From assembly GCA_965212005.1 (NCBI GenBank), contig OZ243038.1:2193432-2257431 (forward strand): a stretch of 64,000 nt of DNA, written 5' to 3'. The translations under genes and the position numbers were made by a program. Shown in pieces: positions 193 through 17,592 of the stretch (the first letter of the stretch is position 1; every line of letters starts with the position of its first letter). The notes under the pieces were generated by a model. That model searched no databases. It saw only the letters and a list, made by a program, of their open reading frames with translations, and was not told the DNA's origin. Source of the stretch: Candidatus Porifericomitaceae bacterium (GTDB taxonomy: Bacteria > Pseudomonadota > Gammaproteobacteria > Porifericomitales > Porifericomitaceae).

Positions 193-1023
193 ATGGTGTC
201 CTGCGTCCTGGCATTTGACATTGAGACGATCCCGGATATAGAAACCGGGCGGCGTCTGCATGACCTGCATTCTGCCTCCGAGTCGGAGGTGGCCGAGGTG
301 CTGTTTCACTATCGCCGCCAGCAAACCGGCGGCGCCAGCGATTTTCTTCAGCATCTTCTGCATCGGGTGATTGCGATCGCGGTGCTGCTGCGCCGCGGTG
401 ACCAGGTCCGGTTATATTCGCTCGGCACAGAGGAGACCTCCGAGCCTGATCTGCTGCGGGAATTTTTCGGCATCATCGATCAGTACTCGCCTACCCTGGT
501 TTCCTGGAACGGGCGCGGTTTTGATCTGCCAGTGCTGCACTACCGCACCTTGCTGCACGGGATCCGCTCTGAACTCTACTGGGACACCGGGGCCCGGCGC
601 CAGGAATTTCGTTGGAATAACTACCAGTCTCGCTTCCACTCCAGGCATACCGACTTGATGGACGTGCTGGCCGGCTACGATGCGCGCGCGACGGCACCCT
701 TGAACCAGGTAGCGCGCCTGCTGAACCTGCCGGGCAAGCTGGGTATGAAGGGCAGTGAAGTGCTGTCCGCCTGGCAGCGCGGGGAGATAACCGCCATTCG
801 GGATTACTGTGAGATAGACGTATTGCTCACGTATTTGATCTACCTGCGCTACCAACAAATCCGCGGTTTCCATGCGGACGATGACTACGAGCACGAGGTG
901 GACCGGGTATGCGGGTTGCTGCGCGCGTCGAAGCGGGAGCATCTGCAGCGCTTTTGCGCACAATGGGAAGAGTGCAGAAAGCGCCCGGGCCGGGACCGCA
1001 CGGCCACGCACGGGGTGGACTGA
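193..1023 (+). CDS. Predicted 3'-5' exonuclease, RNase H-like, related to the PolB exonuclease domain (COG3298-type)
   Basis: Translation contains FDIETIPD (Exo I DxE motif), NGxxFDLPVL and YCExDV-like motifs typical of DEDDy exonucleases. ATG at 193 follows the TAG of the upstream frame. Confidence 0.6.
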   Translation: MVSCVLAFDIETIPDIETGRRLHDLHSASESEVAEVLFHYRRQQTGGASDFLQHLLHRVIAIAVLLRRGDQVRLYSLGTEETSEPDLLREFFGIIDQYSPTLVSWNGRGFDLPVLHYRTLLHGIRSELYWDTGARRQEFRWNNYQSRFHSRHTDLMDVLAGYDARATAPLNQVARLLNLPGKLGMKGSEVLSAWQRGEITAIRDYCEIDVLLTYLIYLRYQQIRGFHADDDYEHEVDRVCGLLRASKREHLQRFCAQWEECRKRPGRDRTATHGVD

Positions 1024-1178
1024 AGCGCATTGCCGTGGCCAAGCCTGCAACAAAGAAAGTGGAGCCGATACCGGCAACGCCGGATACGCTGAAGGCCAAT
1101 GTGTTTTCCGATGTTCGAACTATACGGTCGCCGCAGCTGGCCGTACCTCGCGGGTTGAAATTGAATGCCCGCCTGAAA

Positions 1179-1793
1179 ATGGACGGGATGAAACTGCTGG
1201 AGAAACTGCCGGCCGAATCAATCCCGGTTGCGTTCTTTGACCCGCAATATCGCGGGATACTTGACAAAATGGCCTACGGCAACGAGGGCAGGAAGCGCGG
1301 GCAACGCCGTTGCGCCTTGCAGCAGATGAGCGAGCAAGTTATCGCCGAATTCGTCCAGGCGATTGCCCGGATACTGATACCATCCGGCCACTTGTTTCTA
1401 TGGATGGACAAGTTCCACCTGTGCAACGGCTTCCGTGAATGGTTGACCGGAACCGATCTTGATGTTGTTGACCTCGTGAATTGGGACAAGGGAAAAATCG
1501 GCATGGGCTACCGGAGTCGCCGCACGACCGAATACTGCATAGTTCTACAACGCGAACCGCGCAAGGCAAAAGGCGTTTGGAAAGTCCACAACATCCCGGA
1601 TACCTGGCCCGAAAAGGCAAAAAATGGAAGCAGTCACCCGCACAATAAACCGATTGACTTGCAGGGGGAATTGATCACCGCCGTAAGTGACGAGGGCGAT
1701 ATTATTGTTGACCCTGCCGCTGGTGATTTTACGGTGATGGAAGCGGCCAACTTGCAGCGGCGTAATTTTCTCGGTTGCGACCTGAACGGCTGA
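1179..1793 (+). CDS. DNA methyltransferase, beta-class N6-adenine/N4-cytosine (motif IV D-P-Q-Y before C-terminal SAM-binding VDPAAGDF)
   Basis: MDGMKLLEKLPAESIPVAFFDPQY resembles the N-terminus of N6/N4 MTases (..SVDLIFTDPPY). The C-terminal IIVDPAAGDFTV is a motif I-like FxGxG. Start chosen after the exonuclease stop; the ORF frame is open from 909. Confidence 0.7.
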   Translation: MDGMKLLEKLPAESIPVAFFDPQYRGILDKMAYGNEGRKRGQRRCALQQMSEQVIAEFVQAIARILIPSGHLFLWMDKFHLCNGFREWLTGTDLDVVDLVNWDKGKIGMGYRSRRTTEYCIVLQREPRKAKGVWKVHNIPDTWPEKAKNGSSHPHNKPIDLQGELITAVSDEGDIIVDPAAGDFTVMEAANLQRRNFLGCDLNG

Positions 1794-2327
1794 ATGGCAT
1801 TTCTACCAGACGCCGGAGTCAAGGAGACTTCCGGCGCAGGCGGATACGACAGATGGTTCGGCATCCCCGCATTAGGAGGATTGATCAGCCGTATCCGGTC
1901 CGCCGTCATATCACTGGGTAAGGAACTGGAGCAGATGATACCGGAGCGCGGCCGGCAGATTGAAAACCTGGACGAGTTCTTGAAACCGGAGATTATGCCA
2001 GGCGGCGTACTGATAGCGACAAAGCGGCAAGTCGAGCCATGCGAGTCGATTGACTGCCCCGGTTCAGGGCCGGACTTTGTGATATTCAAGCGGCGCGACG
2101 GCAGGCAAAACTGCTATGTTGCAGAGTTGAAAGACGGCCGCCCGTTTGACACGAAAAAGGCAGGAGCGGAACGGTGGCAGGCGATACATTCATTCATTGG
2201 GCGGAGCTCTCCCCGGCTGCAATATCGCGTGTCCGCCCATTTCTGCTGTTGCAATCAAGAGGACCGCAAAGCTATTATCGTTGGCTCCAGGGGCAAGATA
2301 ACGCCACGGGAAGCGATGACGGGCTGA
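1794..2327 (+). CDS. Hypothetical protein, candidate PD-(D/E)xK-type nuclease translationally coupled to the methyltransferase
   Basis: ATG 1794 abuts the MTase TGA (ctgaATGg). PDFVIF...(17 aa)...VAELK fits D...(D/E)xK spacing. No family recognised. Confidence 0.4.
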   Translation: MAFLPDAGVKETSGAGGYDRWFGIPALGGLISRIRSAVISLGKELEQMIPERGRQIENLDEFLKPEIMPGGVLIATKRQVEPCESIDCPGSGPDFVIFKRRDGRQNCYVAELKDGRPFDTKKAGAERWQAIHSFIGRSSPRLQYRVSAHFCCCNQEDRKAIIVGSRGKITPREAMTG

Positions 2328-2667
2328 GAGTTCTGCGGCCTGTTGGAAATTGATTACGATGAAATCGTGGCGATACGCCAGGAAGTACAGCCGGTGAAGG
2401 TCCGTTTTTCCCTTGCTGAACGGGTACGGGGATCCGGGAAATCCGCAAGGCTTGGAAGCCGGTACTCAAAAACGGCGATGATTAGAGTTGTATATCATTC
2501 CCCTGGCGAATGTTCTGCAGGCGCGGATTGAGATGGTGCCGGCGTGTCCGTCGGTCGCAAGCCCGGCGCCGTTATCCCTTACCTGCCCGCTGGATCCTGC
2601 AGATTCCAACGTGCGCTCCGGTGCGACGCAATCTTTGCCGGCGGTGACCGGCCTTCCAGTCTCATGC

Positions 2668-4215
2668 GTGCACCGGCGGTCGGGGGCGCGGGTTTGCTCG
2701 CGCCGAGGCCCAGCCAGAAATACCCTGTGCTGGATCCTGTCGTTGTTGCCGGCGCTGCTGTACCTGCCTTGGGTGTCCGGCTGTACCGTGCCGCCCGATG
2801 CGACCATCCGTTTCGGCATCCCTGTCGCCCCGTTGACTTTGGACCCGCGCCGCAGCAGCAGTGCCGCCTCCGAGCGGATTGGCCAACTGCTCTACCGCGC
2901 CTTAGTGCGTTTTAATGCGCAGTATCAGCCGGTCCCGGACCTGGCTGACTGGGAGCAAATGGACCGTAGACACTATCGCTTCACGCTGGGCGATGCCGGG
3001 CGTCGCTTTCACGATGGAAGCCGCCTGGTCGCTGCCGACGTAAAAGCGACCTACGACTGGATACTGGATCCGGACAACGGTTCCGTAAAGAGGGGTGCGC
3101 TGGATTCCATCGAGCGGGTCGAGACGGCGGGAAAGGACGTGGTCGACTTTTTTCTGCGCCGCCCGGATGCGCTGTTTCCTGCTCACCTGACGGTGGGCAT
3201 CGTGCCGGCGGCTCTGATCGCCGCCGGGCACGTGCTGGATGATCAGCCGATGGGCAGCGGGCCGTTTCGCTTTCTCGCCCGGCAGGCAGATGACACCCTG
3301 TCGCTGCTGCGCGTGAAGGATGGGCAGCGGGTCGATTTTGTCGTCGTGAAGGAGCCTGTGGTGCGCGTGCTTAAACTGGTCCGCGGCGAGCTGGATTTGA
3401 TCCAGGGCGAAGTTCCCTACGAAATGCGCGCCTGGCTGGAGCGGCATCCGCAAGTGCGCGTGCAAAGCCGCCCCGGTAACGTCTATACTTACGTGGGCTT
3501 TCATTTACAGCATCCGCTGTTGCGTAACTTGCTGGTGCGGCAGGCGATTTCTTATGCCTTGGACCGGGACGCGATCATTCGCTACATGATGCACGGAGAA
3601 GCGGAGAAGGCCGACTCGATGATGCCATCGGGCCACTGGCTGAAACACCCTGCGTTGCCGGAATATGAGTATGATCCGCCACGCGCGCGGCGCTTGCTGC
3701 AGCAGGCCGGATACTACGACGGCCCCAGGCCTGCGCTGGAGTACAAGACTTCCGGCAATCCTTTCCGCATCCGCCTGGCGACCGTGATCCAGCATCAGTT
3801 GGCCGAGGTTGGGCTGCAGGTGCGGCTGCGCCCGCTTGAATGGGGCACTTTTTTCGGCGACGTCCGCGAGGGACGCTTTCAACTCTACAGCTTGTCCTGG
3901 GTAGGCATTAAACTGCCCGATATTTACCGTCGTGTCTTTCACAGCGAGTCAGTACCGCCAGCGGGTGCCAACCGCGGACGCTACGCCGATGCCACCGTTG
4001 ATCGTTTGATCGATGAAGCCGAGCAGGCACGGAACGAGACCTCGCGGCGCAGCGCCTACCTGCAATTGCAGGAGCATCTGCATCAGCAATTGCCCTACGT
4101 CCCTTTATGGCACGAACACTACGTGTTGGCACTGCGTTCCGAGATCATCGGCTACCAGTTGGATGCGGAGGGAAGCTACCGCGGGCTGAGCGAAATTTAC
4201 CGGGAAGCGCAGTGA
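2668..4215 (+). CDS. ABC transporter substrate-binding protein, family 5 (peptide/nickel/opine-type, DppA/OppA-like), lipoprotein-type signal peptide
   Basis: 575-aa ORF with SBP_bac_5-like architecture. N-terminal LLPALLYLPWVSGC lipobox. GTG 2668 proposed as start; the ORF frame is open from 2488. Confidence 0.75.
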   Translation: MHRRSGARVCSRRGPARNTLCWILSLLPALLYLPWVSGCTVPPDATIRFGIPVAPLTLDPRRSSSAASERIGQLLYRALVRFNAQYQPVPDLADWEQMDRRHYRFTLGDAGRRFHDGSRLVAADVKATYDWILDPDNGSVKRGALDSIERVETAGKDVVDFFLRRPDALFPAHLTVGIVPAALIAAGHVLDDQPMGSGPFRFLARQADDTLSLLRVKDGQRVDFVVVKEPVVRVLKLVRGELDLIQGEVPYEMRAWLERHPQVRVQSRPGNVYTYVGFHLQHPLLRNLLVRQAISYALDRDAIIRYMMHGEAEKADSMMPSGHWLKHPALPEYEYDPPRARRLLQQAGYYDGPRPALEYKTSGNPFRIRLATVIQHQLAEVGLQVRLRPLEWGTFFGDVREGRFQLYSLSWVGIKLPDIYRRVFHSESVPPAGANRGRYADATVDRLIDEAEQARNETSRRSAYLQLQEHLHQQLPYVPLWHEHYVLALRSEIIGYQLDAEGSYRGLSEIYREAQ

Positions 4216-4762: not shown

Positions 4763-4835
4763 CTAGCCGTTACTGAATCGAGTTGGTCAAAATGAACCAT
4801 TCTGAATTCCCTGCTGGCGAGCCGAACTCGCAGAG
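4763..4835. repeat. Left terminal inverted repeat (~73 bp) of the accessory island
   Basis: ctagccgttactgaatcgagttggtcaaaatgaaccattctgaattccctgctggcgagccgaactcgcagag. Its near-perfect reverse complement occurs at 20389-20462. Confidence 0.75.
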
Positions 4836-4838
4836 CAG

Positions 4839-5400
4839 TGAACCCCAAAATTTGGATAGTAGTTTAAGGTGTAGTTTAGTCTACATGAGGAACTACACAG
4901 AGGACAAAACGAAAGAAATACTCTCCTGGGCGGAAAGCGCGGGCTGCCTTGGCGGTGACCCGTGGAGATGGCACGAGCGCCGAGTTGGCACAGAAGTTCG
5001 GAGTGCACCCCAATAGGATTACCCAGTGGAAACGCGAAGCGCTCGATGGCATGGAGGATACCTTCACCGAGACGGCAAGCGCCGCCCCGAGCCGGAGGCG
5101 GACATCAAAACGCTGCAGGCCAAGGTCGGCTAACTCATTGTAGAGCGGTATTTTTTAGCCAGGGCCTTCGAGTGATCTTCCCCCTGTTGGGTAGCCATTC
5201 AAAGAGAGACAAAATATCTTATCCTGCCGCCTCTGCCTCGAACACAGCCGGCACCAGATAATGGAGTGAACTATGTGGTCGGGTGCCAGCCTGCATAAGC
5301 TCAGAAACATAGGGCATTTTTCGGGCCAGTAGCGGTGCCAATCCACGTTGACAATGGCGAAGAGCGGCAGTAGCTTTGAATAGTCGAAGGCTGTTGTTGG
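4839..5400 (+). mobile_element. IS3-family insertion sequence remnant (orfA with frameshifts, fragment of orfB integrase core; non-functional)
   Basis: Starts TGAACCCC (IS3-type IRL tip). Translation fragments AELAQKFGVHPNRITQWKREAL (HTH), EADIKTLQAKVG and LIVERYFLARA (leucine-zipper/frameshift region), VPIHVDNGEE (DDE core-like), in different frames. Confidence 0.6.
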
Positions 5401-5419: not shown

Positions 5420-5872
5420 ATGATCGGCAGATATGGCTTGATATGCGCCGTTTTGGCATTGTTTCTGGGGGCAGGAGGGTGGTATGTGCTGGGTCCGGCA
5501 AAACTTGGGCGTGCGCCGGTGCCCGCCCCGCTGGCTGTTTCCGATTCCTCTGCCAGCGCTCCTGGCGATTCCGCCGCATCACCTTTTATAGGGCCGTCCG
5601 CTTCGAGCCCGGTCGCTTCCGGTGCGCCCGCACTTTTGTATCCGCAAAGCCCGGAAGAGCTGACGGGCATGAAGAGGCGTGCCGATCGGCTGATTGAAGA
5701 GACCGATGACTGGTTGAGCACCCTGCCGCCGTTACCCGGAGCAGGGACCGCCGCCGCTCCTGCTCCTGTCCTCAGCGATGAGGAATTTGAGCGCCGTCAG
5801 CTTGCCGTGAGCAACAAGGCGGCCCGCTTGCAGGAGCGTGCCGGGTCAGGCTCGCAGGAGGCCGGACCGTGA
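5420..5872 (+). CDS. Hypothetical membrane-anchored protein with Pro/Ala/Ser-rich low-complexity region
   Basis: N-terminal TM helix (LICAVLALFLGAGGWYVL) then PAS-rich linker. No recognisable domain. The start is uncertain. Confidence 0.35.
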   Translation: MIGRYGLICAVLALFLGAGGWYVLGPAKLGRAPVPAPLAVSDSSASAPGDSAASPFIGPSASSPVASGAPALLYPQSPEELTGMKRRADRLIEETDDWLSTLPPLPGAGTAAAPAPVLSDEEFERRQLAVSNKAARLQERAGSGSQEAGP

Positions 5873-5948
5873 TGTATCACCGCCGCTGGCGCCGTCTGTG
5901 CGGCTGGTTGTGCCATTGGGCCATGTTGGCGCCATTAGGGGTTGGCGG

Positions 5949-6395
5949 ATGAACATTATAAAAAAACGATTGTTGCTGGCCATACTTGCCATATTTGTAT
6001 TGTTTGGAACAGCGTCCTGCAGTTATCCCTTTTACATGAAAGCATCAGGTAGTTTGGATCATTCAATTTTGTTCCAGTTTTTCAAAGAGGAAAATGATGA
6101 AAAGCCATCGAAATTCGATATTACTGTGTTTACAGTTTATGGACAGACAGCCGATGCTCAATGGATCCCCATATGGCGTCTCATTGGCGGCCAGACTCTG
6201 AGTAGTATTGAGTACGGTATAAATATACAGTATAAGGGGCTTACTGAAATCGTGCCGCATAAACCACTCGCAAAGGGTAAGCAATATGAAGCGGTTGCGG
6301 CAGGTTCAGTATGGCCTAAGCCAGGGTTGGGACACGCGAGAATTGATTTCTTTTTTGATGAAGGAGGCAATTTGATTCAGGGCAGTATCAAGTAA
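5949..6395 (+). CDS. Small secreted/lipoprotein, cassette copy 1 (148 aa; MNIIKKRLLLAILAIFVLFGTASC...)
   Basis: Signal peptide with Cys at +1 region (..FGTASC). AGGGG RBS 9 nt upstream of ATG. Four paralogous copies in tandem. Confidence 0.65.
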   Translation: MNIIKKRLLLAILAIFVLFGTASCSYPFYMKASGSLDHSILFQFFKEENDEKPSKFDITVFTVYGQTADAQWIPIWRLIGGQTLSSIEYGINIQYKGLTEIVPHKPLAKGKQYEAVAAGSVWPKPGLGHARIDFFFDEGGNLIQGSIK

Positions 6396-9862: not shown

Positions 9863-10516
9863 ATGCGCAGTTTAAGATCTTTGCTCCGATTGCTCGCCAG
9901 CAGCGTGATCATCATTCATTCCGCTTTTACGTGTGCTGCCGGCATGACTGATTGTGATGCTTTGGAACTGATTTCAGGTCACTCTGATTACAATTCGCTA
10001 GTCTGTGCTGGTGTTCAGAAAGTGGAAGAGCGAAAATATGAGGAAGCGATTTCTCTATTTGAGCAGGCCCTGGCTGTTCCGCTACGTGAGTGGTCTAACT
10101 TCCTGTTATTACCCCGGCTGGCTTTGGCACATCATCTGTCCGGCTCCGGACAAAAAGCGGAAAGCGTTTTGCTGAAAGCTGAGTTGACGTTGTCGGTATT
10201 TTTGGGTTTGATGACATGCGAACAGACGGAGACGGGTTACGTTGTTCGTCGAGCGTATGAAGATTATCTCACTGGCCAGGTGGGCAATGAGGTTGCAGCA
10301 ATTATGTGTGGCAATGAATATCATTACGTATCTGAGCGGGATACACTTGAACAAGTGCTGCTGGAAGCGAAGTTGATAGAGAATTATTTTGAGATCAAGC
10401 GGCAGATCGGCTTATCTGAAGGCGATGACTCCCAGGCTGCAGTGAGGCGTGGATTGCACGTCGGTGTCGGGGCAGGCCGTTATTGTTATAACAGGCGGCA
10501 TCATGGACAGGGTTAG
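9863..10516 (+). CDS. Secreted 217-aa protein, standalone paralog of the ankyrin protein N-terminal domain (copy 1)
   Basis: Signal peptide. Shares blocks DCDAxEL, YNSLVCxG, KYEEAIxxFEQAL, LLPRLALAHHLSGS, TLSVF, NYFEIKRQIG with the ankyrin protein N-domain. Confidence 0.6.
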   Translation: MRSLRSLLRLLASSVIIIHSAFTCAAGMTDCDALELISGHSDYNSLVCAGVQKVEERKYEEAISLFEQALAVPLREWSNFLLLPRLALAHHLSGSGQKAESVLLKAELTLSVFLGLMTCEQTETGYVVRRAYEDYLTGQVGNEVAAIMCGNEYHYVSERDTLEQVLLEAKLIENYFEIKRQIGLSEGDDSQAAVRRGLHVGVGAGRYCYNRRHHGQG

Positions 10517-10783
10517 TCTTCGATACAAAGATGCTCCATCGGATCGACTCACCAGTATAACCACGCGGAGGGGTTACGCGGTGGGGCAGCTTTACGTTAC
10601 TGCGGCACCTGGCATCCAGTCTGGAGTAAGCGCAGGGGCTGGTCAAGTTATTAGCACACGTCAAGGGCGGGGAGGCCGGCATCCTGGGAGCACAGAACGC
10701 GTTCCTGCAGAGCTTGCACATAACAGTCAGGTATGTGGAGGCCGGGGCGCTGATTTCGCTTCCGTAAGTAGCAGCCTGTACAA

Positions 10784-13549
10784 ATGAAGTCCTTGCTCTG
10801 GTGGCTGGTCGGCAGCGTTATTATTATTCATTCGGCTTTCGCGCATGCTGATGATGATAAGTTTGATTGTGATGCCTGGGAGCTTTTCGGGACAAGATTT
10901 GAGGGCTACGATTATTACAATTCGCTAGTCTGTTCTGGTATTAAGAACATGGAAAAGGGGCAATATGAGGAAGCCGTTGTCCAATTTGAGGAGGCCCTGA
11001 CTGTTCCGCTAAATGAATGGCCTAACTTTATGTTATTGCCCAGACTGGCTTTGGCCTATCATCTGTCCGGTTCCAGAGAAAAGGCAAAAAGAGTTCTGCT
11101 AAAAGCGAAGCGGACGCTGTCGGTATTTACTGGTTTGATTAAATGCGAAGTAAGAGATATCCCCACTTGGAGCGATTATATTATTATGCGCCAGGCAAAT
11201 GGTATTGCCCTCTCCTCCCGCGACGGAATGTGTGGTGAGATATATTTTCCATATTATGAGAGTAAGTCTCTTGGTGCAATGCGATATGATGCGAGGGTTG
11301 TAAAGAATTATTTTGAGATCAAGCGGCAGATGGGCTTTTCCACCCCCCTTCATGAGACGGCGCAAGAGGGGCGCACAGCAGTCATCCAGACGCTGATTGA
11401 GGCAGGTGCAGACGTCAATGTGGAAGATAGCGACGGCGAGACCCCGCTTCATAGGGCGGCCCGGGAAGGCCACACAGCAGTCGTCCAGACACTGATTCGG
11501 GCAGGTGCGGACGTCAATGCGAAGGATGGCGAGAGGAAGACCCCACTTCATGGGGCGGCGCGGGAAGGCGACACAGCAGTTATCCAGATGCTGATTGAGG
11601 CAGGTGCGGACGTCCATGCAAAGTACAGAGACGGTTCCCCGCTGCATGAGGCGGCATACAAAGGCCGCACAGAAGCCATCCGTATGCTGATTAAGGCAGG
11701 TGCGGACGTCAATGCAAGGACGTCGACTGACTACACCTCGCTTCATGGGGCGGCGTACAAGGGCTACCCGGAAACCGTCCGTATGCTGATTGAAGCAGGC
11801 GCAGACGTCAATGCGGAGGATATTTTATACGGTGAGACCCCGCTTCGTTTGGCGGCAAAAAAAGAACAAACAGAAGTCATCCGCATGCTGATTGAGGCAG
11901 GCGCGGACGTCAACATGGAGGCAATAGACGGGAGCACCTGGACTCCGCTTTACTGGGCGGTACAGGGGGGGCACATAGAAGTCATCAAGGTGCTGATTGA
12001 GGCAGGCGCGGATGTCAATGCAAGGTCCAGATACGGCGAGCCCCCGCTTCATGAGGCGGTCCGGGAAGGCCTGTCAGAAGGTGTTTCTGTGTTGATTGGG
12101 GCAGGCGCGGATGTCAATGCGAGAGATGGCCGCGGCGAGACCCCGCTTCATAATGCGGTATTGAGAGGCCGGTCAGAAAGTGTTTCTACGTTGATTGAGG
12201 CAGGTGCGGACGTCAATGCGAAGAATAACGAAGGCTGGACTCCGCTTTACTGGGCGGTACAGGAGGGGCGCATAGAAGTCATCCGCATGCTGATTGAGGC
12301 AGGCGCGGACGTCAACATGGAGGCAATAGACGGGAGCAACTGGACTTCGCTTTACTGGGCGGTACAGGAGGGGCACATAGAAGTCATCAAAGTGCTGATT
12401 GAGGCAGGCGTGGATGTCAATGCGACGTCCAGATACGGCGAGCCCCCGCTTCATGAGGCGGTCCGGGAAGGCCTGTCAGAAGGTGTTTTTGTGTTGATTG
12501 GGGCAGGTGCGGATGTCAATGCGAAAGACAGCCTCGGCGAGACCCCGCTTCGTTTGGCGGCAAAAACAGAACAAACAGAAGTCATCCGCATGCTGATTGA
12601 GGCAGGCGCAGACGTCAACATGGAGGCAATAGACGGGAGCAACTGGACTCCGCTTTACTGGGCGGTACAGGAGGGGGACATAGAAGCCATCCGCATGCTG
12701 ATTGAGGCAGGCGCGGATGTCAACGCAAGGTCCAGATACGGCGAGCCCCCGCTTCATGAGGCGGCCCGGGAAGGCCACAGAGCAGTCGTCCAGGCACTGA
12801 TTCGGGCAGGCGTGGATGTCAATGCGAAAGATAGCGGCGGCGAGACCCCGCTTCATGAGGTGGCACTGTCAGGCGATCCAGAACTTGTTGATGTGCTGAT
12901 TGAGGCAGGCGCGGATGTCAATGCAAGGTCCAGATACGGTGAGACCCCGCTTCATGAAGCGGTCCAGGAAGGCCACACAGCAGTCGTCCAGGCACTGATT
13001 CGGGCAGGCGTGGATGTGAATGCGAAAGATAGCGGTGGCGAGACCCTGCTTCATGAGGCGGCACTGTCTGGCGATCCAGAACTTGTTGATGTGCTGATTG
13101 AGGCAGGCGCGGATGTCAATGCGAAAGGTAGCAGCGGCGAGCCCCTGCTTCATGAGGCGGCCCGGGAAGGCCACACAGCAGTCGTCCGGGCACTGATTCG
13201 GGCAGGCGTGGATGTGAATGCGAAAGATAGCGGCGGCGAGACCCCGCTTCATGAGGCGGCATGGTCAGGCCTGTCAGAAGGTGTTTCTACGTTGATTGAG
13301 GCAGGTGCGGACGTCAATGCGAAGGATAACGAAGGCTGGACTCCGCTTCACAGGGCGGCACAGTCAGGCGAGCCAGAACTTGTTGATGTGCTGGTTGCCG
13401 CAGGCGCAGACGTGAATGCAAAGGATGCAGACGGAGACACGCCGTTGGATAAGACAAAATCCAAAATGGATCAAATGGATCGAAAAAATGAAGAATACGA
13501 TAAGTATCGGACAGTCGTTGACTTGCTGGATAGGGCAGGCGCAAGATAA
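10784..13549 (+). CDS. Secreted ankyrin-repeat protein, 921 aa (signal peptide + ~170-aa Cys-containing N-domain + ~21 ANK repeats + Lys/Asp-rich tail), copy 1
   Basis: Signal peptide ends IIIHSAFA|HADD. Repeats are 33 aa each, e.g. TPLHxAAxEGHTAVVQALIRAGADVNAKDxxGE. Confidence 0.85.
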   Translation: MKSLLWWLVGSVIIIHSAFAHADDDKFDCDAWELFGTRFEGYDYYNSLVCSGIKNMEKGQYEEAVVQFEEALTVPLNEWPNFMLLPRLALAYHLSGSREKAKRVLLKAKRTLSVFTGLIKCEVRDIPTWSDYIIMRQANGIALSSRDGMCGEIYFPYYESKSLGAMRYDARVVKNYFEIKRQMGFSTPLHETAQEGRTAVIQTLIEAGADVNVEDSDGETPLHRAAREGHTAVVQTLIRAGADVNAKDGERKTPLHGAAREGDTAVIQMLIEAGADVHAKYRDGSPLHEAAYKGRTEAIRMLIKAGADVNARTSTDYTSLHGAAYKGYPETVRMLIEAGADVNAEDILYGETPLRLAAKKEQTEVIRMLIEAGADVNMEAIDGSTWTPLYWAVQGGHIEVIKVLIEAGADVNARSRYGEPPLHEAVREGLSEGVSVLIGAGADVNARDGRGETPLHNAVLRGRSESVSTLIEAGADVNAKNNEGWTPLYWAVQEGRIEVIRMLIEAGADVNMEAIDGSNWTSLYWAVQEGHIEVIKVLIEAGVDVNATSRYGEPPLHEAVREGLSEGVFVLIGAGADVNAKDSLGETPLRLAAKTEQTEVIRMLIEAGADVNMEAIDGSNWTPLYWAVQEGDIEAIRMLIEAGADVNARSRYGEPPLHEAAREGHRAVVQALIRAGVDVNAKDSGGETPLHEVALSGDPELVDVLIEAGADVNARSRYGETPLHEAVQEGHTAVVQALIRAGVDVNAKDSGGETLLHEAALSGDPELVDVLIEAGADVNAKGSSGEPLLHEAAREGHTAVVRALIRAGVDVNAKDSGGETPLHEAAWSGLSEGVSTLIEAGADVNAKDNEGWTPLHRAAQSGEPELVDVLVAAGADVNAKDADGDTPLDKTKSKMDQMDRKNEEYDKYRTVVDLLDRAGAR

Positions 13550-13768
13550 TTGGGACTCGTCAGTGCCAGCCGGATAAGAACGTCCGGTCATGGATATGTC
13601 CTAACCGCCTTCGATGTCCGGAAAAACTGTTTTGCTTGCAAAGTCAAAGCGAGCAACGTTGGTTGCTAGCCGTTACGGCTAGATCGGCGCCAATCCACGT
13701 TGACAATGGCGAAGAGCGGCAGTAACTTTGAATAGTAGAAGGCTTTATGCCGATTCCTGAAAACTAGC

Positions 13769-14422
13769 ATGCGCAGTTCAAGATATTTGCTCCGATTGCT
13801 CGTCGGCAGCGTGATCATCATTCATTCCGCTTTTACGTGTGCTGCCGGCATGACTGATTGTGATGCTTTGGAACTGATTTCAGGTCACTCTGATTACAAT
13901 TCGCTAGTCTGTGCTGGTGTTCAGAAAGTGGAAGAGCGAAAATATGAGGAAGCGATTTCTCTATTTGAGCAGGCCCTGGCTGTTCCGCTACGTGAGTGGT
14001 CTAACTTCCTGTTATTACCCCGGCTGGCTTTGGCACATCATCTGTCCGGCTCCGGACAAAAAGCGGAAAGCGTTTTGCTGAAAGCTGAGTTGACGTTGTC
14101 GGTATTTGTGGGTTTGATGACATGCGAACAGACGGAGACGGGTTACGTTGTTCGTCGAGCGTATGAAGATTATCTCACTGGCCAGGTGGGCAATGAGGTT
14201 GCAGCAATTATGTGTGGCAATGAATATCATTACGTATCTGAGCGGGATACACTTGAACAAGTGCTGCTGGAAGCGAAGTTGATAGAGAATTATTTTGAGA
14301 TCAAGCGGCAGATCGGCTTATCTGAAGGCGATGACTCCCAGGCTGCAGTGAGGCGTGGATTGCACGTCGGTGTCGGGGCAGGCCGTTATTGTTATAACAG
14401 GCGGCATCATGGACAGGGTTAG
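13769..14422 (+). CDS. Secreted 217-aa N-domain paralog, copy 2
   Basis: About 98% identical to 9863-10516. Confidence 0.6.
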   Translation: MRSSRYLLRLLVGSVIIIHSAFTCAAGMTDCDALELISGHSDYNSLVCAGVQKVEERKYEEAISLFEQALAVPLREWSNFLLLPRLALAHHLSGSGQKAESVLLKAELTLSVFVGLMTCEQTETGYVVRRAYEDYLTGQVGNEVAAIMCGNEYHYVSERDTLEQVLLEAKLIENYFEIKRQIGLSEGDDSQAAVRRGLHVGVGAGRYCYNRRHHGQG

Positions 14423-14689
14423 TCTTCGATACAAAGATGCTCCATCTAATCGGCTCACCAGTATAACCACGCGGGGGGGTTACGCGGTGGGGCAGCGTAA
14501 CGTTACTGCGACGCCTGGAACTCAGTCTGGAGTAAGCGCAGGGGCTGGTCAAGTTATTAGCACACGTCAAGAGTGGGGAGGCCGGCATCCTGGGAGCACA
14601 GAACGCGTTCCTGCAGAGCTTGCACATAACAGTCAGGTATGTGGAGGCCGGGGCGCTGATTTCGCTTCCGTAAGTGGCAGCCTGTACAA

Positions 14690-16456
14690 ATGAAGTCCTT
14701 GCTCTGGTGGCTGGTCGGCAGCGTTATTATTATTCATTCGGCTTTCGCGCATGCTGATGATAAGTTGGATTGTGATGCCTGGGAGCTTTACGGGACAGGC
14801 TATCATTATTACAATTCGCTAGTCTGTTCTGGTATTAAGAACATGGAAAAGGGGCAATATGAGGAAGCCATTGTCCAATTTGAGGAGGCTCTGACTATTT
14901 GGATACATGAATGGCCTAACTTTATGTTATTGCCCAGACTGGCTTTGGCCTATCATCTGTCCGGTTCCAGAGAAAAGGCAAAAAGAGTTCTGCTAAAAGC
15001 GAAGCGGACGCTGTCGATACTTACTGGTTTGATTAAATGCGAAGAAAGAGATACCACCACTTTGAGAGATTATATTATTATGCGCCAGGCGAATGGTATT
15101 GCCCTCTCTGGAGACGACGTAATGTGTGGTTCGGTATTATATTTTCCATATTATGAGAGTAAGTCTCTTGGTGCAATGCGATATGATGCGAGGATTGTAA
15201 AGAATTATTTTGAGATCAAGCGGCAGATGGGCTTTTCCACCCCCCTTCATGAGACGGCGCAAGAGGGGCGCACAGCAGTCATCCAGACGCTGATTGAGGC
15301 AGGTGCAGACGTCAATGCGGAAGATAGCGACGGCGAGACCCCGCTTCATAGGGCGGCCCGGGAAGGCCACACAGCAGTCGTCCAGGCACTGATTCGGGCA
15401 GGCGCGGACGTCAATGCGAAGGATGGCGAGAGGAAGACCCCACTTCATGGGGCGGCGCGGGAAGGCGACACAGCAGTTATCCAGATGCTGATTGAGGCAG
15501 GTGCGGACGTCAATGCAAAGTACAGAGACGGCGGCTCCCCGCTGCATGAGGCGGCATACAAAGGCCGCACAGAAGCCATCCGTATGCTGATTAAGGCAGG
15601 TGCGGACGTCAATGCAAGTACGTCGACTGACTACACCCCGCTTCATGGGGCGGTGTACAAGGGCTACCCGGAAATCATCCGTATGCTGATTGAAGCAGGC
15701 GCGGACGTCAATGCGGCGGAGCGTTACTACGGTGAGACCTCGCTTCGTTTGGCGGCAAAAAAAGAACGAACAGAAGTCATCCGCATGCTGATTGAGGCAG
15801 GCGCGGACGTCAACATGGAGGCAATAGACGGGAGCAACTGGACTCCGCTTTACTGGGCGGTACAGGAGGGGCACATAGAAGTCATCAAGGTGCTGATTGG
15901 GGCAGGTGCGGATGTCAATGCAAGGTCCAGATACGGTGAGCCCCCGCTTCATGGGGCGGTCCAGAAAGGCCTGTCAGAAGGTGTTTCTGTGTTGATTGGG
16001 GCAGGCGCGGATGTCAATGCGAAAGATAGCCGCGGCGAGACCCCGCTTTATGAGGCGGCATTGAGAGGCCGGTCAGAAGGTATTTCTACGTTGATTGGGG
16101 CAGGTGCGGACGTCAATGCGAAGAATAACGAAGGCTGGACTCCTCTTCACAGGGCGGCACAGTCATGGTGGTCAGGCCTGTCAAAAGGTGTTTCTACGTT
16201 GATTGGGGCAGGTGCGGACGTCAATGCGAAGGATAACGAAGGCTGGACTCCGCTTCACAGGGCGGCACTGTCAGGCGATCCAGAACTTGTTGATGTGCTG
16301 GTTGCCGCAGGCGCAGACGTGAATGCAAAGGATGCAGACGGAGACACGCCGTTGGATAAGACAAAATCCAAAATGGATCAAATGGATCGAAAAAATGAAG
16401 AATACGATAAGTATCGGACAGTCGTTGACTTGCTGGATAGGGCAGGCGCAAGATAA
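14690..16456 (+). CDS. Secreted ankyrin-repeat protein, 588 aa, copy 2 (in-frame loss of ~11 ANK repeats, mosaic)
   Basis: Same N-domain and C-tail. The middle repeats are absent relative to copies 1 and 3. Junction region AAQSWWSGLSKGVSTL. Confidence 0.8.
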   Translation: MKSLLWWLVGSVIIIHSAFAHADDKLDCDAWELYGTGYHYYNSLVCSGIKNMEKGQYEEAIVQFEEALTIWIHEWPNFMLLPRLALAYHLSGSREKAKRVLLKAKRTLSILTGLIKCEERDTTTLRDYIIMRQANGIALSGDDVMCGSVLYFPYYESKSLGAMRYDARIVKNYFEIKRQMGFSTPLHETAQEGRTAVIQTLIEAGADVNAEDSDGETPLHRAAREGHTAVVQALIRAGADVNAKDGERKTPLHGAAREGDTAVIQMLIEAGADVNAKYRDGGSPLHEAAYKGRTEAIRMLIKAGADVNASTSTDYTPLHGAVYKGYPEIIRMLIEAGADVNAAERYYGETSLRLAAKKERTEVIRMLIEAGADVNMEAIDGSNWTPLYWAVQEGHIEVIKVLIGAGADVNARSRYGEPPLHGAVQKGLSEGVSVLIGAGADVNAKDSRGETPLYEAALRGRSEGISTLIGAGADVNAKNNEGWTPLHRAAQSWWSGLSKGVSTLIGAGADVNAKDNEGWTPLHRAALSGDPELVDVLVAAGADVNAKDADGDTPLDKTKSKMDQMDRKNEEYDKYRTVVDLLDRAGAR

Positions 16457-16674
16457 TTGGGACTCGTCAGTGCCAGCCGGATGAGAACGTCCGGTCATGG
16501 ATATGTCCTAACCGCCTTCGATGTCCGGAAAAACTGTTTTGCTTGCAAAGTCAAGCGAGCAACGTTGGTTGCTAGCCGTTACGGCTAGATCGGCGCCAAT
16601 CCACGTTGACAATGGCGAAGAGCGGCAGTAGCTTTGCATAGTAGAAGGCTTTATGCCGATTCCTGAAAACTAGC

Positions 16675-17328
16675 ATGCGCAGTTTAAGATCTTTGCTCCG
16701 ATTGCTCGCCAGCAGCGTGATCATCATTCATTCCGCTTTTACGTGTGCTGCCGGCATGACTGATTGTGATGCTTTGGAACTGATTTCAGGTCACTCTGAT
16801 TACAATTCGCTAGTCTGTGCTGGTGTTCAGAAAGTGGAAGAGCGAAAATATGAGGAAGCGATTTCTCTATTTGAGCAGGCCCTGGCTGTTCCGCTACGTG
16901 AGTGGTCTAACTTCCTGTTATTACCCCGGCTGGCTTTGGTACATCATCTGTCCGGCTCCGGACAAAAAGCGGAAAGCGTTTTGCTGAAAGCTGAGTTGAC
17001 GTTGTCGGTATTTGTGGGTTTGATGACATGCGAACAGACGGAGACGGGTTACGTTGTTCGTCGAGCGTATGAAGATTATCTCACTGGCCAGGTGGGCAAT
17101 GAGGTTGCAGCAATTATGTGTGGCAATGAATATCATTACGTATCTGAGCGGGATACACTTGAACAAGTGCTGCTGGAAGCGAAGTTGATAGAGAATTATT
17201 TTGAGATCAAGCGGCAGATCGGCTTATCTGAAGGCGATGACTCCCAGGCTGCAGTGAGGCGTGGATTGCACGTCGGTGTCGGGGCAGGCCGTTATTGTTA
17301 TAACAGGCGGCATCATGGACAGGGTTAG
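16675..17328 (+). CDS. Secreted 217-aa N-domain paralog, copy 3
   Basis: About 99% identical to copy 1. Confidence 0.6.
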   Translation: MRSLRSLLRLLASSVIIIHSAFTCAAGMTDCDALELISGHSDYNSLVCAGVQKVEERKYEEAISLFEQALAVPLREWSNFLLLPRLALVHHLSGSGQKAESVLLKAELTLSVFVGLMTCEQTETGYVVRRAYEDYLTGQVGNEVAAIMCGNEYHYVSERDTLEQVLLEAKLIENYFEIKRQIGLSEGDDSQAAVRRGLHVGVGAGRYCYNRRHHGQG

Positions 17329-17592
17329 TCTTCGATACGGAGATGCTCCATCGGATCGGCTCACCAGTATAACCACGGGGGGATACGCGGTGGGGCAGCT
17401 TTACGTTACTGCGGCGCCTGGAACTCAGTCTGGAGTTAGCGCAGGGGCTGGTCAAGTTATTAGCACACGTCAAGAGCGGGGAGGCCGGCATCCTGGGAGC
17501 ACAGAACGCGTTCCTGCAGAGCTTGCACATAACAGTCAGGTATGTGGAGGCCGGGGCGCTGATTTCGCTTCCGTAAGTAGCAGCCTGTACAA

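Follow-up and report, generated by a model that had tools for sequence, protein, structure and literature searches.

The HhaII restriction-modification (R-M) system of Haemophilus, reportedly described by Schoner, Kelly and Smith in 1983, acts at GANTC. Its two genes are arranged head-to-tail (PMC3039593), and its methyltransferase (MTase), M.HhaII (P00473), has been reported to contain an unusual motif IV, DPQYR (PMC4190342), and has G6mANTC as its product (PMC12707154). CcrM and M.HinfI have a C-terminal segment of ~80 residues that M.HhaII does not have (PMC7672430), and orphan MTases have been reviewed (PMC12707154). Here we analysed a 64-kb stretch of DNA from a Candidatus Porifericomitaceae bacterium (contig OZ243038.1), referred to throughout as the window, in which an exonuclease gene is followed by a gene for a DNA MTase and then by an open reading frame (ORF) of 177 amino acids (aa). 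Profile searches and homologue alignments indicate that the MTase gene and the gene downstream of it are very probably a type II R-M pair whose restriction endonuclease (REase) gene has become a pseudogene.

Several features of the window pair resemble HhaII: the MTase is small, belongs to the beta-class amino-MTases and has motif IV as DPQYR, the gene order is head-to-tail, and the REase is small, of the PD-(D/E)XK type and ~226 aa in length. R.HhaII and M.HhaII comprise 227 and 228 aa; these lengths equal those of the PADLOC profiles PDLC03487 and PDLC03271. Unlike in HhaII, the window MTase, at 252 aa, is extended at its N-terminus by 48 residues that are conserved in its environmental relatives, and the window REase is disrupted. 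Profile and homologue searches with the REase and the MTase returned generic names only and no named HhaII match. We consider the chances slightly better than even that the pair is HhaII-like, with GANTC as its most probable target.

The window MTase shares with CcrM and M.HinfI the beta-class N6_N4 fold and, if the HhaII assignment holds, perhaps the target site. It also gave a weak match to the NCBIfam model for CcrM, although the score of 29 bits is far below the cutoff of 830, and it differs from both enzymes in having no C-terminal segment of ~80 residues; it is not a CcrM orthologue. That R-M systems can decay to solitary MTases is well established, and solitary MTases left by decayed R-M systems were reportedly treated by Seshasayee et al. 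in 2012 and by Murphy et al. in 2013. The window locus resembles these in its apparently intact MTase beside a degraded REase, but would be a recent and recognisable intermediate, unlike Dam or CcrM, which are orphans conserved across their lineages.

The methyltransferase gene and the conserved pair

The MTase gene (positions 1035-1793, + strand) encodes a beta-class N6_N4 DNA MTase that appears intact. Its product matched the PADLOC profile MTase_II (PDLC03271) over profile positions 17-218 of 228 with an E-value of 1.3e-77 (258.5 bits), and it matched Pfam PF01555 (N6_N4 DNA methylase) far more weakly. The catalytic motif IV, DPQY(R), lies at 1239-1250 (+), where the window reads FFDPQYRG, and the S-adenosylmethionine (AdoMet)-binding motif I, DPAAGDF, lies at 1710-1730 (+); both are invariant in the MTase alignment, the latter as D-P-A-A-G-x-F. 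Motif I thus follows motif IV in the protein, as expected of the beta class, and the placement of DPQY ahead of a C-terminal motif agrees with the order (DPQY, then FxGxG) given in the first-pass annotation of this DNA. That annotation had described a short beta-class MTase of ~205 aa; the class stands, whereas the length does not, as homologues are mostly 250-253 aa and share the 48-residue N-terminal extension. Within the N-terminal region a conserved stretch with the consensus VFSxxRTxQxPxIxxPxGLKxNxRLKMDG aligns to the window frame that opens at GTG 1035 (MAKPATKK...), and from these homologues we infer that translation starts at this GTG, giving 252 aa; the source annotation has an ATG start at 963 and a product of 276 aa.

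Identity of the MTase to its relatives is 80-86%. In an alignment of 115 homologues, 85 columns reach a conservation of 95% or more, and the window copy departs from the consensus at none of them. Judged from its sequence, the MTase is full length and unblemished and looks fully functional.

The stop codon of the MTase gene (TGA, 1791-1793) directly abuts the ATG (1794) of the 177-aa ORF, as had been noticed at first pass, and this abutting arrangement, MTase gene (M) followed by REase gene (R), recurs in other genomes. Three unrelated genomes, complete or nearly so (L085, L002 and L003), have intact M-R pairs, and that of L085 is the closest intact relative of the window pair; the same order is found on viral contigs (L088-L090) and on conjugative Campylobacter plasmids (L084), where the two genes are annotated as DNA methyltransferase and restriction endonuclease. 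The first-pass annotation had suggested a minimal R-M pair with an accessory exonuclease, in a grouping that was not a textbook R-M arrangement. The PADLOC matches to MTase_II and REase_II uphold the pair; the exonuclease falls away, absent from all 40 MTase-family loci and itself found without either gene in all 80 exonuclease loci, and once it is set aside what is left is a head-to-tail M-R pair, which is the textbook order. Nor do the two products belong where the same annotation had said that they would speak against it, with rRNA or protein methyltransferases and a non-nuclease family: they are a DNA MTase and a member of a PD-(D/E)XK REase family.

The MTase also occurs by itself, and the MTase family is a common phage or solitary methyltransferase as well as a partner in R-M pairs. 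Relatives at 45-64% identity are present on 34 IMG/VR viral contigs, three of which also carry the REase and 31 of which do not (L087, L091-L120), and a bacterial chromosome has the MTase alone with no REase remnant (L086:6001-6759). No REase homologue was found in 50,697 GenBank phage records. One family therefore displays three stages: intact pairs (L085, L002, L003), the decaying copy in the window, and MTase-only loci. Downstream of the intact pair in L003, at a distance of ~1.5-3.7 kb (L003:8186-10331), are two more genes with N6_N4 MTase matches; the product of one (411 aa) combines the match with HNH nuclease domains and that of the other (293 aa) with HEAT repeats, and this region is a small cluster of methyltransferase genes.

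Lesions in the restriction endonuclease gene

The 177-aa ORF (1794-2327, +) corresponds to the N-terminal 78% of a type II REase, as judged from PADLOC coverage and from alignment to homologues. Its product matched the PADLOC profile REase_II (PDLC03487) with an E-value of 2e-20 (71 bits) over profile positions 11-179 of 227 only, and the REase homologues in the database are 222-228 aa long. When the TGA that closes the ORF is read through, the score rises from 71 to 93 bits (E-value 3.5e-27) and the match reaches profile position 209; an ORF at 2343-2531 lies in the same frame. In tblastn searches with intact homologues, residues 1-209 aligned to 1794-2429 in one frame with an internal stop, and residues 210-225 aligned to 2432-2479 in the next frame, followed by TAG at 2483-2485. 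The second match, in frame 2 from 2432, is collinear with the frame-3 match that ends at 2429 and reads IREIRKAWKPVLKNGD, compared with IREIREALKQLLKNGD in the homologue. Because homology continues in frame past the TGA and then in the next frame up to the TAG, the ancestral REase gene would have spanned 1794-2485 (+), an ORF of ~229 codons.

Two lesions separate the window copy from this ancestral form. The first is a nonsense mutation, a premature TGA at codon 178 (2325-2327, +), which falls within the motif MTG-R-EFC of the REase alignment, at a position where 146 of 172 homologues have Arg; the codon at this position is CGG in L001, L002 and L003 and CCG in L085. The second is a frameshift of either two extra bases or a one-base loss in a run of G residues towards the 3' end (2430-2431, +), located by the change of frame in the tblastn alignment. 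Recoding of TGA as a sense codon was considered and rejected, since TGA serves as the stop codon of the exonuclease gene and of the MTase gene, and since the frameshift is a separate lesion. No second copy of the REase gene is present in the 64-kb window.

The gene has also accumulated substitutions. At the 44 REase columns that are at least 95% conserved, the window copy deviates four times (K81E, F153C, K166R and N202K), compared with a family mean of 0.48 deviations, and only 3 of 172 homologues reach four. Relative to its MTase, the window REase is 4-6.5 identity points more diverged than the REase of L085, across all partners compared. Relaxed selection on the R gene would be expected to give just this contrast between an unblemished MTase and a REase that is eroding. 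In our assessment there is a high probability that the REase gene has been inactivated by the premature TGA and the 3' frameshift and is gathering substitutions at conserved positions. Restriction activity is likely to have been lost and, with the R gene disrupted, the unit has probably ceased to function in defence.

Several points weigh against reading the locus as an HhaII-kind R-M cassette in decay. The stop and the frameshift are both taken from a single assembly, and the frameshift lies within a run of G residues, a kind of sequence in which assemblies are often wrong. The catalytic PD...ExK core is still present in the truncated 177-aa product, and residual activity is possible from its sequence. 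The tentative assignment to HhaII and GANTC is drawn from one shared unusual motif, the gene order and protein lengths that equal those of the PADLOC profiles, and GANTC is not avoided in the window (154 sites observed against 167 expected), although this count is uninformative if the acquisition was recent. Finally, no insertion boundaries were recognised: a repeat search of the flanks gave short repeats at chance level only, and no mobile-element ends were found there.

One rival reading is that the pair is fully functional, with an intact REase of ~229 aa and with both lesions being errors of assembly or sequencing. A GGGG run is a typical site for such an error and the rest of the M-R pair is canonical, yet the nonsense change is a substitution which, starting from CGG, takes two base changes or a route through CGA, and four near-invariant residues have changed independently of both lesions, placing the window copy in the top 2% of the family. 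Together with the excess divergence of the REase relative to its partner MTase, and with the fact that the source annotation calls the same 177-aa product (P0001), these observations make a functional pair improbable; assembly error accounts less readily for the nonsense change, and for so many substitutions at conserved sites, than for the frameshift.

The REase family is a PD-(D/E)XK fold nuclease as judged from a model: AlphaFold predicted the structure of an intact member (P0003, 57-sequence alignment) with a predicted local distance difference test (pLDDT) score of 89.5 and a predicted template modelling (pTM) score of 0.83, and a Foldseek search with this model gave EcoO109I, a type IIP REase of the PD-(D/E)XK kind, as the first match (probability 0.97). 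The catalytic residues lie on predicted strands E93-99 and E102-111. In the window copy the catalytic PD...ExK signature (2070-2132, +) is retained, with P93-D94 at 2070-2075 and E111-L-K113 at 2124-2132, all of which are invariant in 19-57 aligned homologues. The nuclease-like character that the first-pass annotation had given the 177-aa ORF on account of this signature is thereby supported; its status as a complete small protein is not, for it is a truncated member of a family of 222-228 aa. The truncation removes four C-terminal helices (residues 174-224, pLDDT 91-97 in the model) that hold the invariant or near-invariant positions C178, L181, D184, Y185, I188, R192 and N199.

These data bear on the view that the 177-aa protein is still active, perhaps in attenuated form, as part of a minimal R-M system or of an addiction module resembling a toxin-antitoxin pair. 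Retention of the catalytic residues and, in the model, of the whole central beta-sheet (strands up to residue 173), as well as the tight coupling of M to R, would agree with such activity. However, ~50 C-terminal residues with four confidently modelled helices and their near-invariant positions are gone, mutations have also altered K166, which is invariant, and F153, which is nearly so, and in EcoO109I-type enzymes, the closest structural relatives, helices of this sort mediate dimerisation or contact DNA. We therefore regard an active truncated nuclease as unlikely, and prefer the reading in which the REase gene has been inactivated.

The family to which the REase belongs has at least 1,714 members in the protein collection (P0002-P0304 among them), yet neither Pfam nor NCBIfam has a model for it and none of its structures has been solved. 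Pfam and NCBIfam searches with the 177-aa ORF gave nothing meaningful, only a sub-threshold match to DUF5836; PHROGs gave no match for this ORF, and no PDB chain was found by sequence with either the single REase or the family profile. A model of the REase family would improve annotation.

The exonuclease gene and the origin of the cassette

The gene upstream of the pair (193-1023, +) encodes a DEDDy 3'-5' exonuclease of the PF10108 (DNA_pol_B_exo2) family, a conserved chromosomal neighbour that lies outside the R-M unit. The Pfam search matched the whole profile (positions 1-213 of 213) with an E-value of 1.9e-81 (273 bits, cutoff 24), confirming the PolB-like 3'-5' exonuclease that had been recognised at first pass. 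A genome scan found at least 586 loci of this family in Gamma- and Betaproteobacteria, with identities of up to 58%, and 80 of these loci were fetched for neighbour counts (L004-L083). Directly downstream of the exonuclease gene, and on the same strand, 55 of the 80 have rlmD, the gene for the 23S rRNA U1939 methyltransferase (identified by NCBIfam NF009639, 549 bits against a cutoff of 458). A solute-binding protein gene is found downstream in 10 of the 80, and an L,D-transpeptidase gene is found nearby in 22. Because none of the 80 holds M or R and rlmD follows in 55, the exonuclease is not part of a module with the pair; it is an unrelated conserved neighbour whose grouping with the R-M pair is coincidental. 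It is at most co-transcribed with the MTase: both genes are on one strand, and 11 nt lie between the exonuclease stop codon and the GTG at which the MTase is inferred to start.

Comparison of the window with the same 80 loci places a break in synteny at 1024-2690, where the R-M pair holds the slot that is usually taken by rlmD; no rlmD gene is present anywhere in the 64-kb window. GC content at third codon positions (GC3) is 0.64 in both M and R, whereas the flanking genes have values of 0.75 (the exonuclease) and 0.73, consistent with a horizontal origin of the pair. A promoter and terminator scan of the locus gave background-level signals only. The sequence of events that we propose is that a two-gene type II R-M cassette of the HhaII kind was inserted, or recombined in, downstream of the conserved exonuclease gene, at the position usually held by rlmD in relatives. 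The MTase has most likely stayed active and would modify a base at its amino group within a short palindrome, the probable product being N6-methyladenine in GANTC. On this proposal the locus would be an R-M system in decay which now probably amounts to a solitary MTase.

The cassette could alternatively be what is left of a mobile element, such as a phage, instead of a free-standing chromosomal R-M insertion. The viral contigs that carry MTase relatives, in three cases with the REase, and the conjugative Campylobacter plasmids that carry the pair provide precedents for such a source, and fragments of an IS3-type transposase lie ~2.3 kb downstream. On the other side, the pair has no phage, integrase or plasmid genes next to it, its neighbours are chromosomal genes that are conserved (upstream the exonuclease gene, downstream those for the solute-binding protein and the L,D-transpeptidase), the search for flanking repeats found none above chance, and the GenBank phage records yielded no REase match. 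A mobile-element remnant is thus an unlikely account of the locus, and a free-standing insertion of the two-gene cassette is preferred.

The least tenable proposal is a single defence or modification module of exonuclease, MTase and nuclease in which the exonuclease would degrade restricted DNA: the 11-nt gap on one strand makes co-transcription plausible, but with no M or R at the 80 exonuclease loci, no exonuclease at the 40 MTase-family loci, no match of the exonuclease to any PADLOC defence model, a usual partner (rlmD) that is a housekeeping gene, and a GC3 of 0.75 against 0.64 for M and R, we give it almost no credence.

A further and rather speculative possibility, built on analogy with CcrM, is that the MTase, as a GANTC-type enzyme, was perhaps kept after loss of the REase and domesticated as a lineage-specific epigenetic regulator in this gammaproteobacterium; we think this improbable. 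Since the MTase gene starts 11 nt behind the exonuclease gene, it may be co-transcribed with it. Were domestication to have occurred, selection acting on methylation itself would explain why the MTase is perfectly conserved next to a REase in decay.

The locus is an ordinary one, and the finding matters little beyond annotation. Its consequences there are a set of corrected gene models, namely an MTase of 252 aa with a GTG start and a 177-aa "hypothetical protein" that becomes a REase pseudogene extending to 2485, together with the removal of the exonuclease from a supposed defence module.

Other genes in the window

Downstream of the pair, and outside the unit, is a gene for a family-5 ABC solute-binding lipoprotein (2692-4215, +, approximate start; SBP_bac_5, E-value 5.4e-61). 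Just past the L,D-transpeptidase gene, at ~4780-5260, IS3-family transposase sequence is split over several frames (for example ELAQKFGVHPNRITQWKREALDGMEDTF) and looks like a decayed insertion sequence. A 185-aa ORF at 5838-6395 (+) has an N-terminus resembling a signal peptide and no Pfam match, and is situated at the start of a low-GC region that precedes a set of ankyrin cassettes.

These cassettes, three in tandem at 9863-20349 (+), each consist of a 217-aa ORF followed by a very large ankyrin-repeat protein. The 217-aa ORFs (9863-10516, 13769-14422 and 16675-17328) have no Pfam match, and the ankyrin-repeat proteins of 921, 588 and 918 aa match Pfam Ank with E-values down to 1e-200. The ankyrin region has a lower GC content (0.45-0.55) and a strong GC skew, and the cassettes suggest a host-associated (symbiont) lifestyle.

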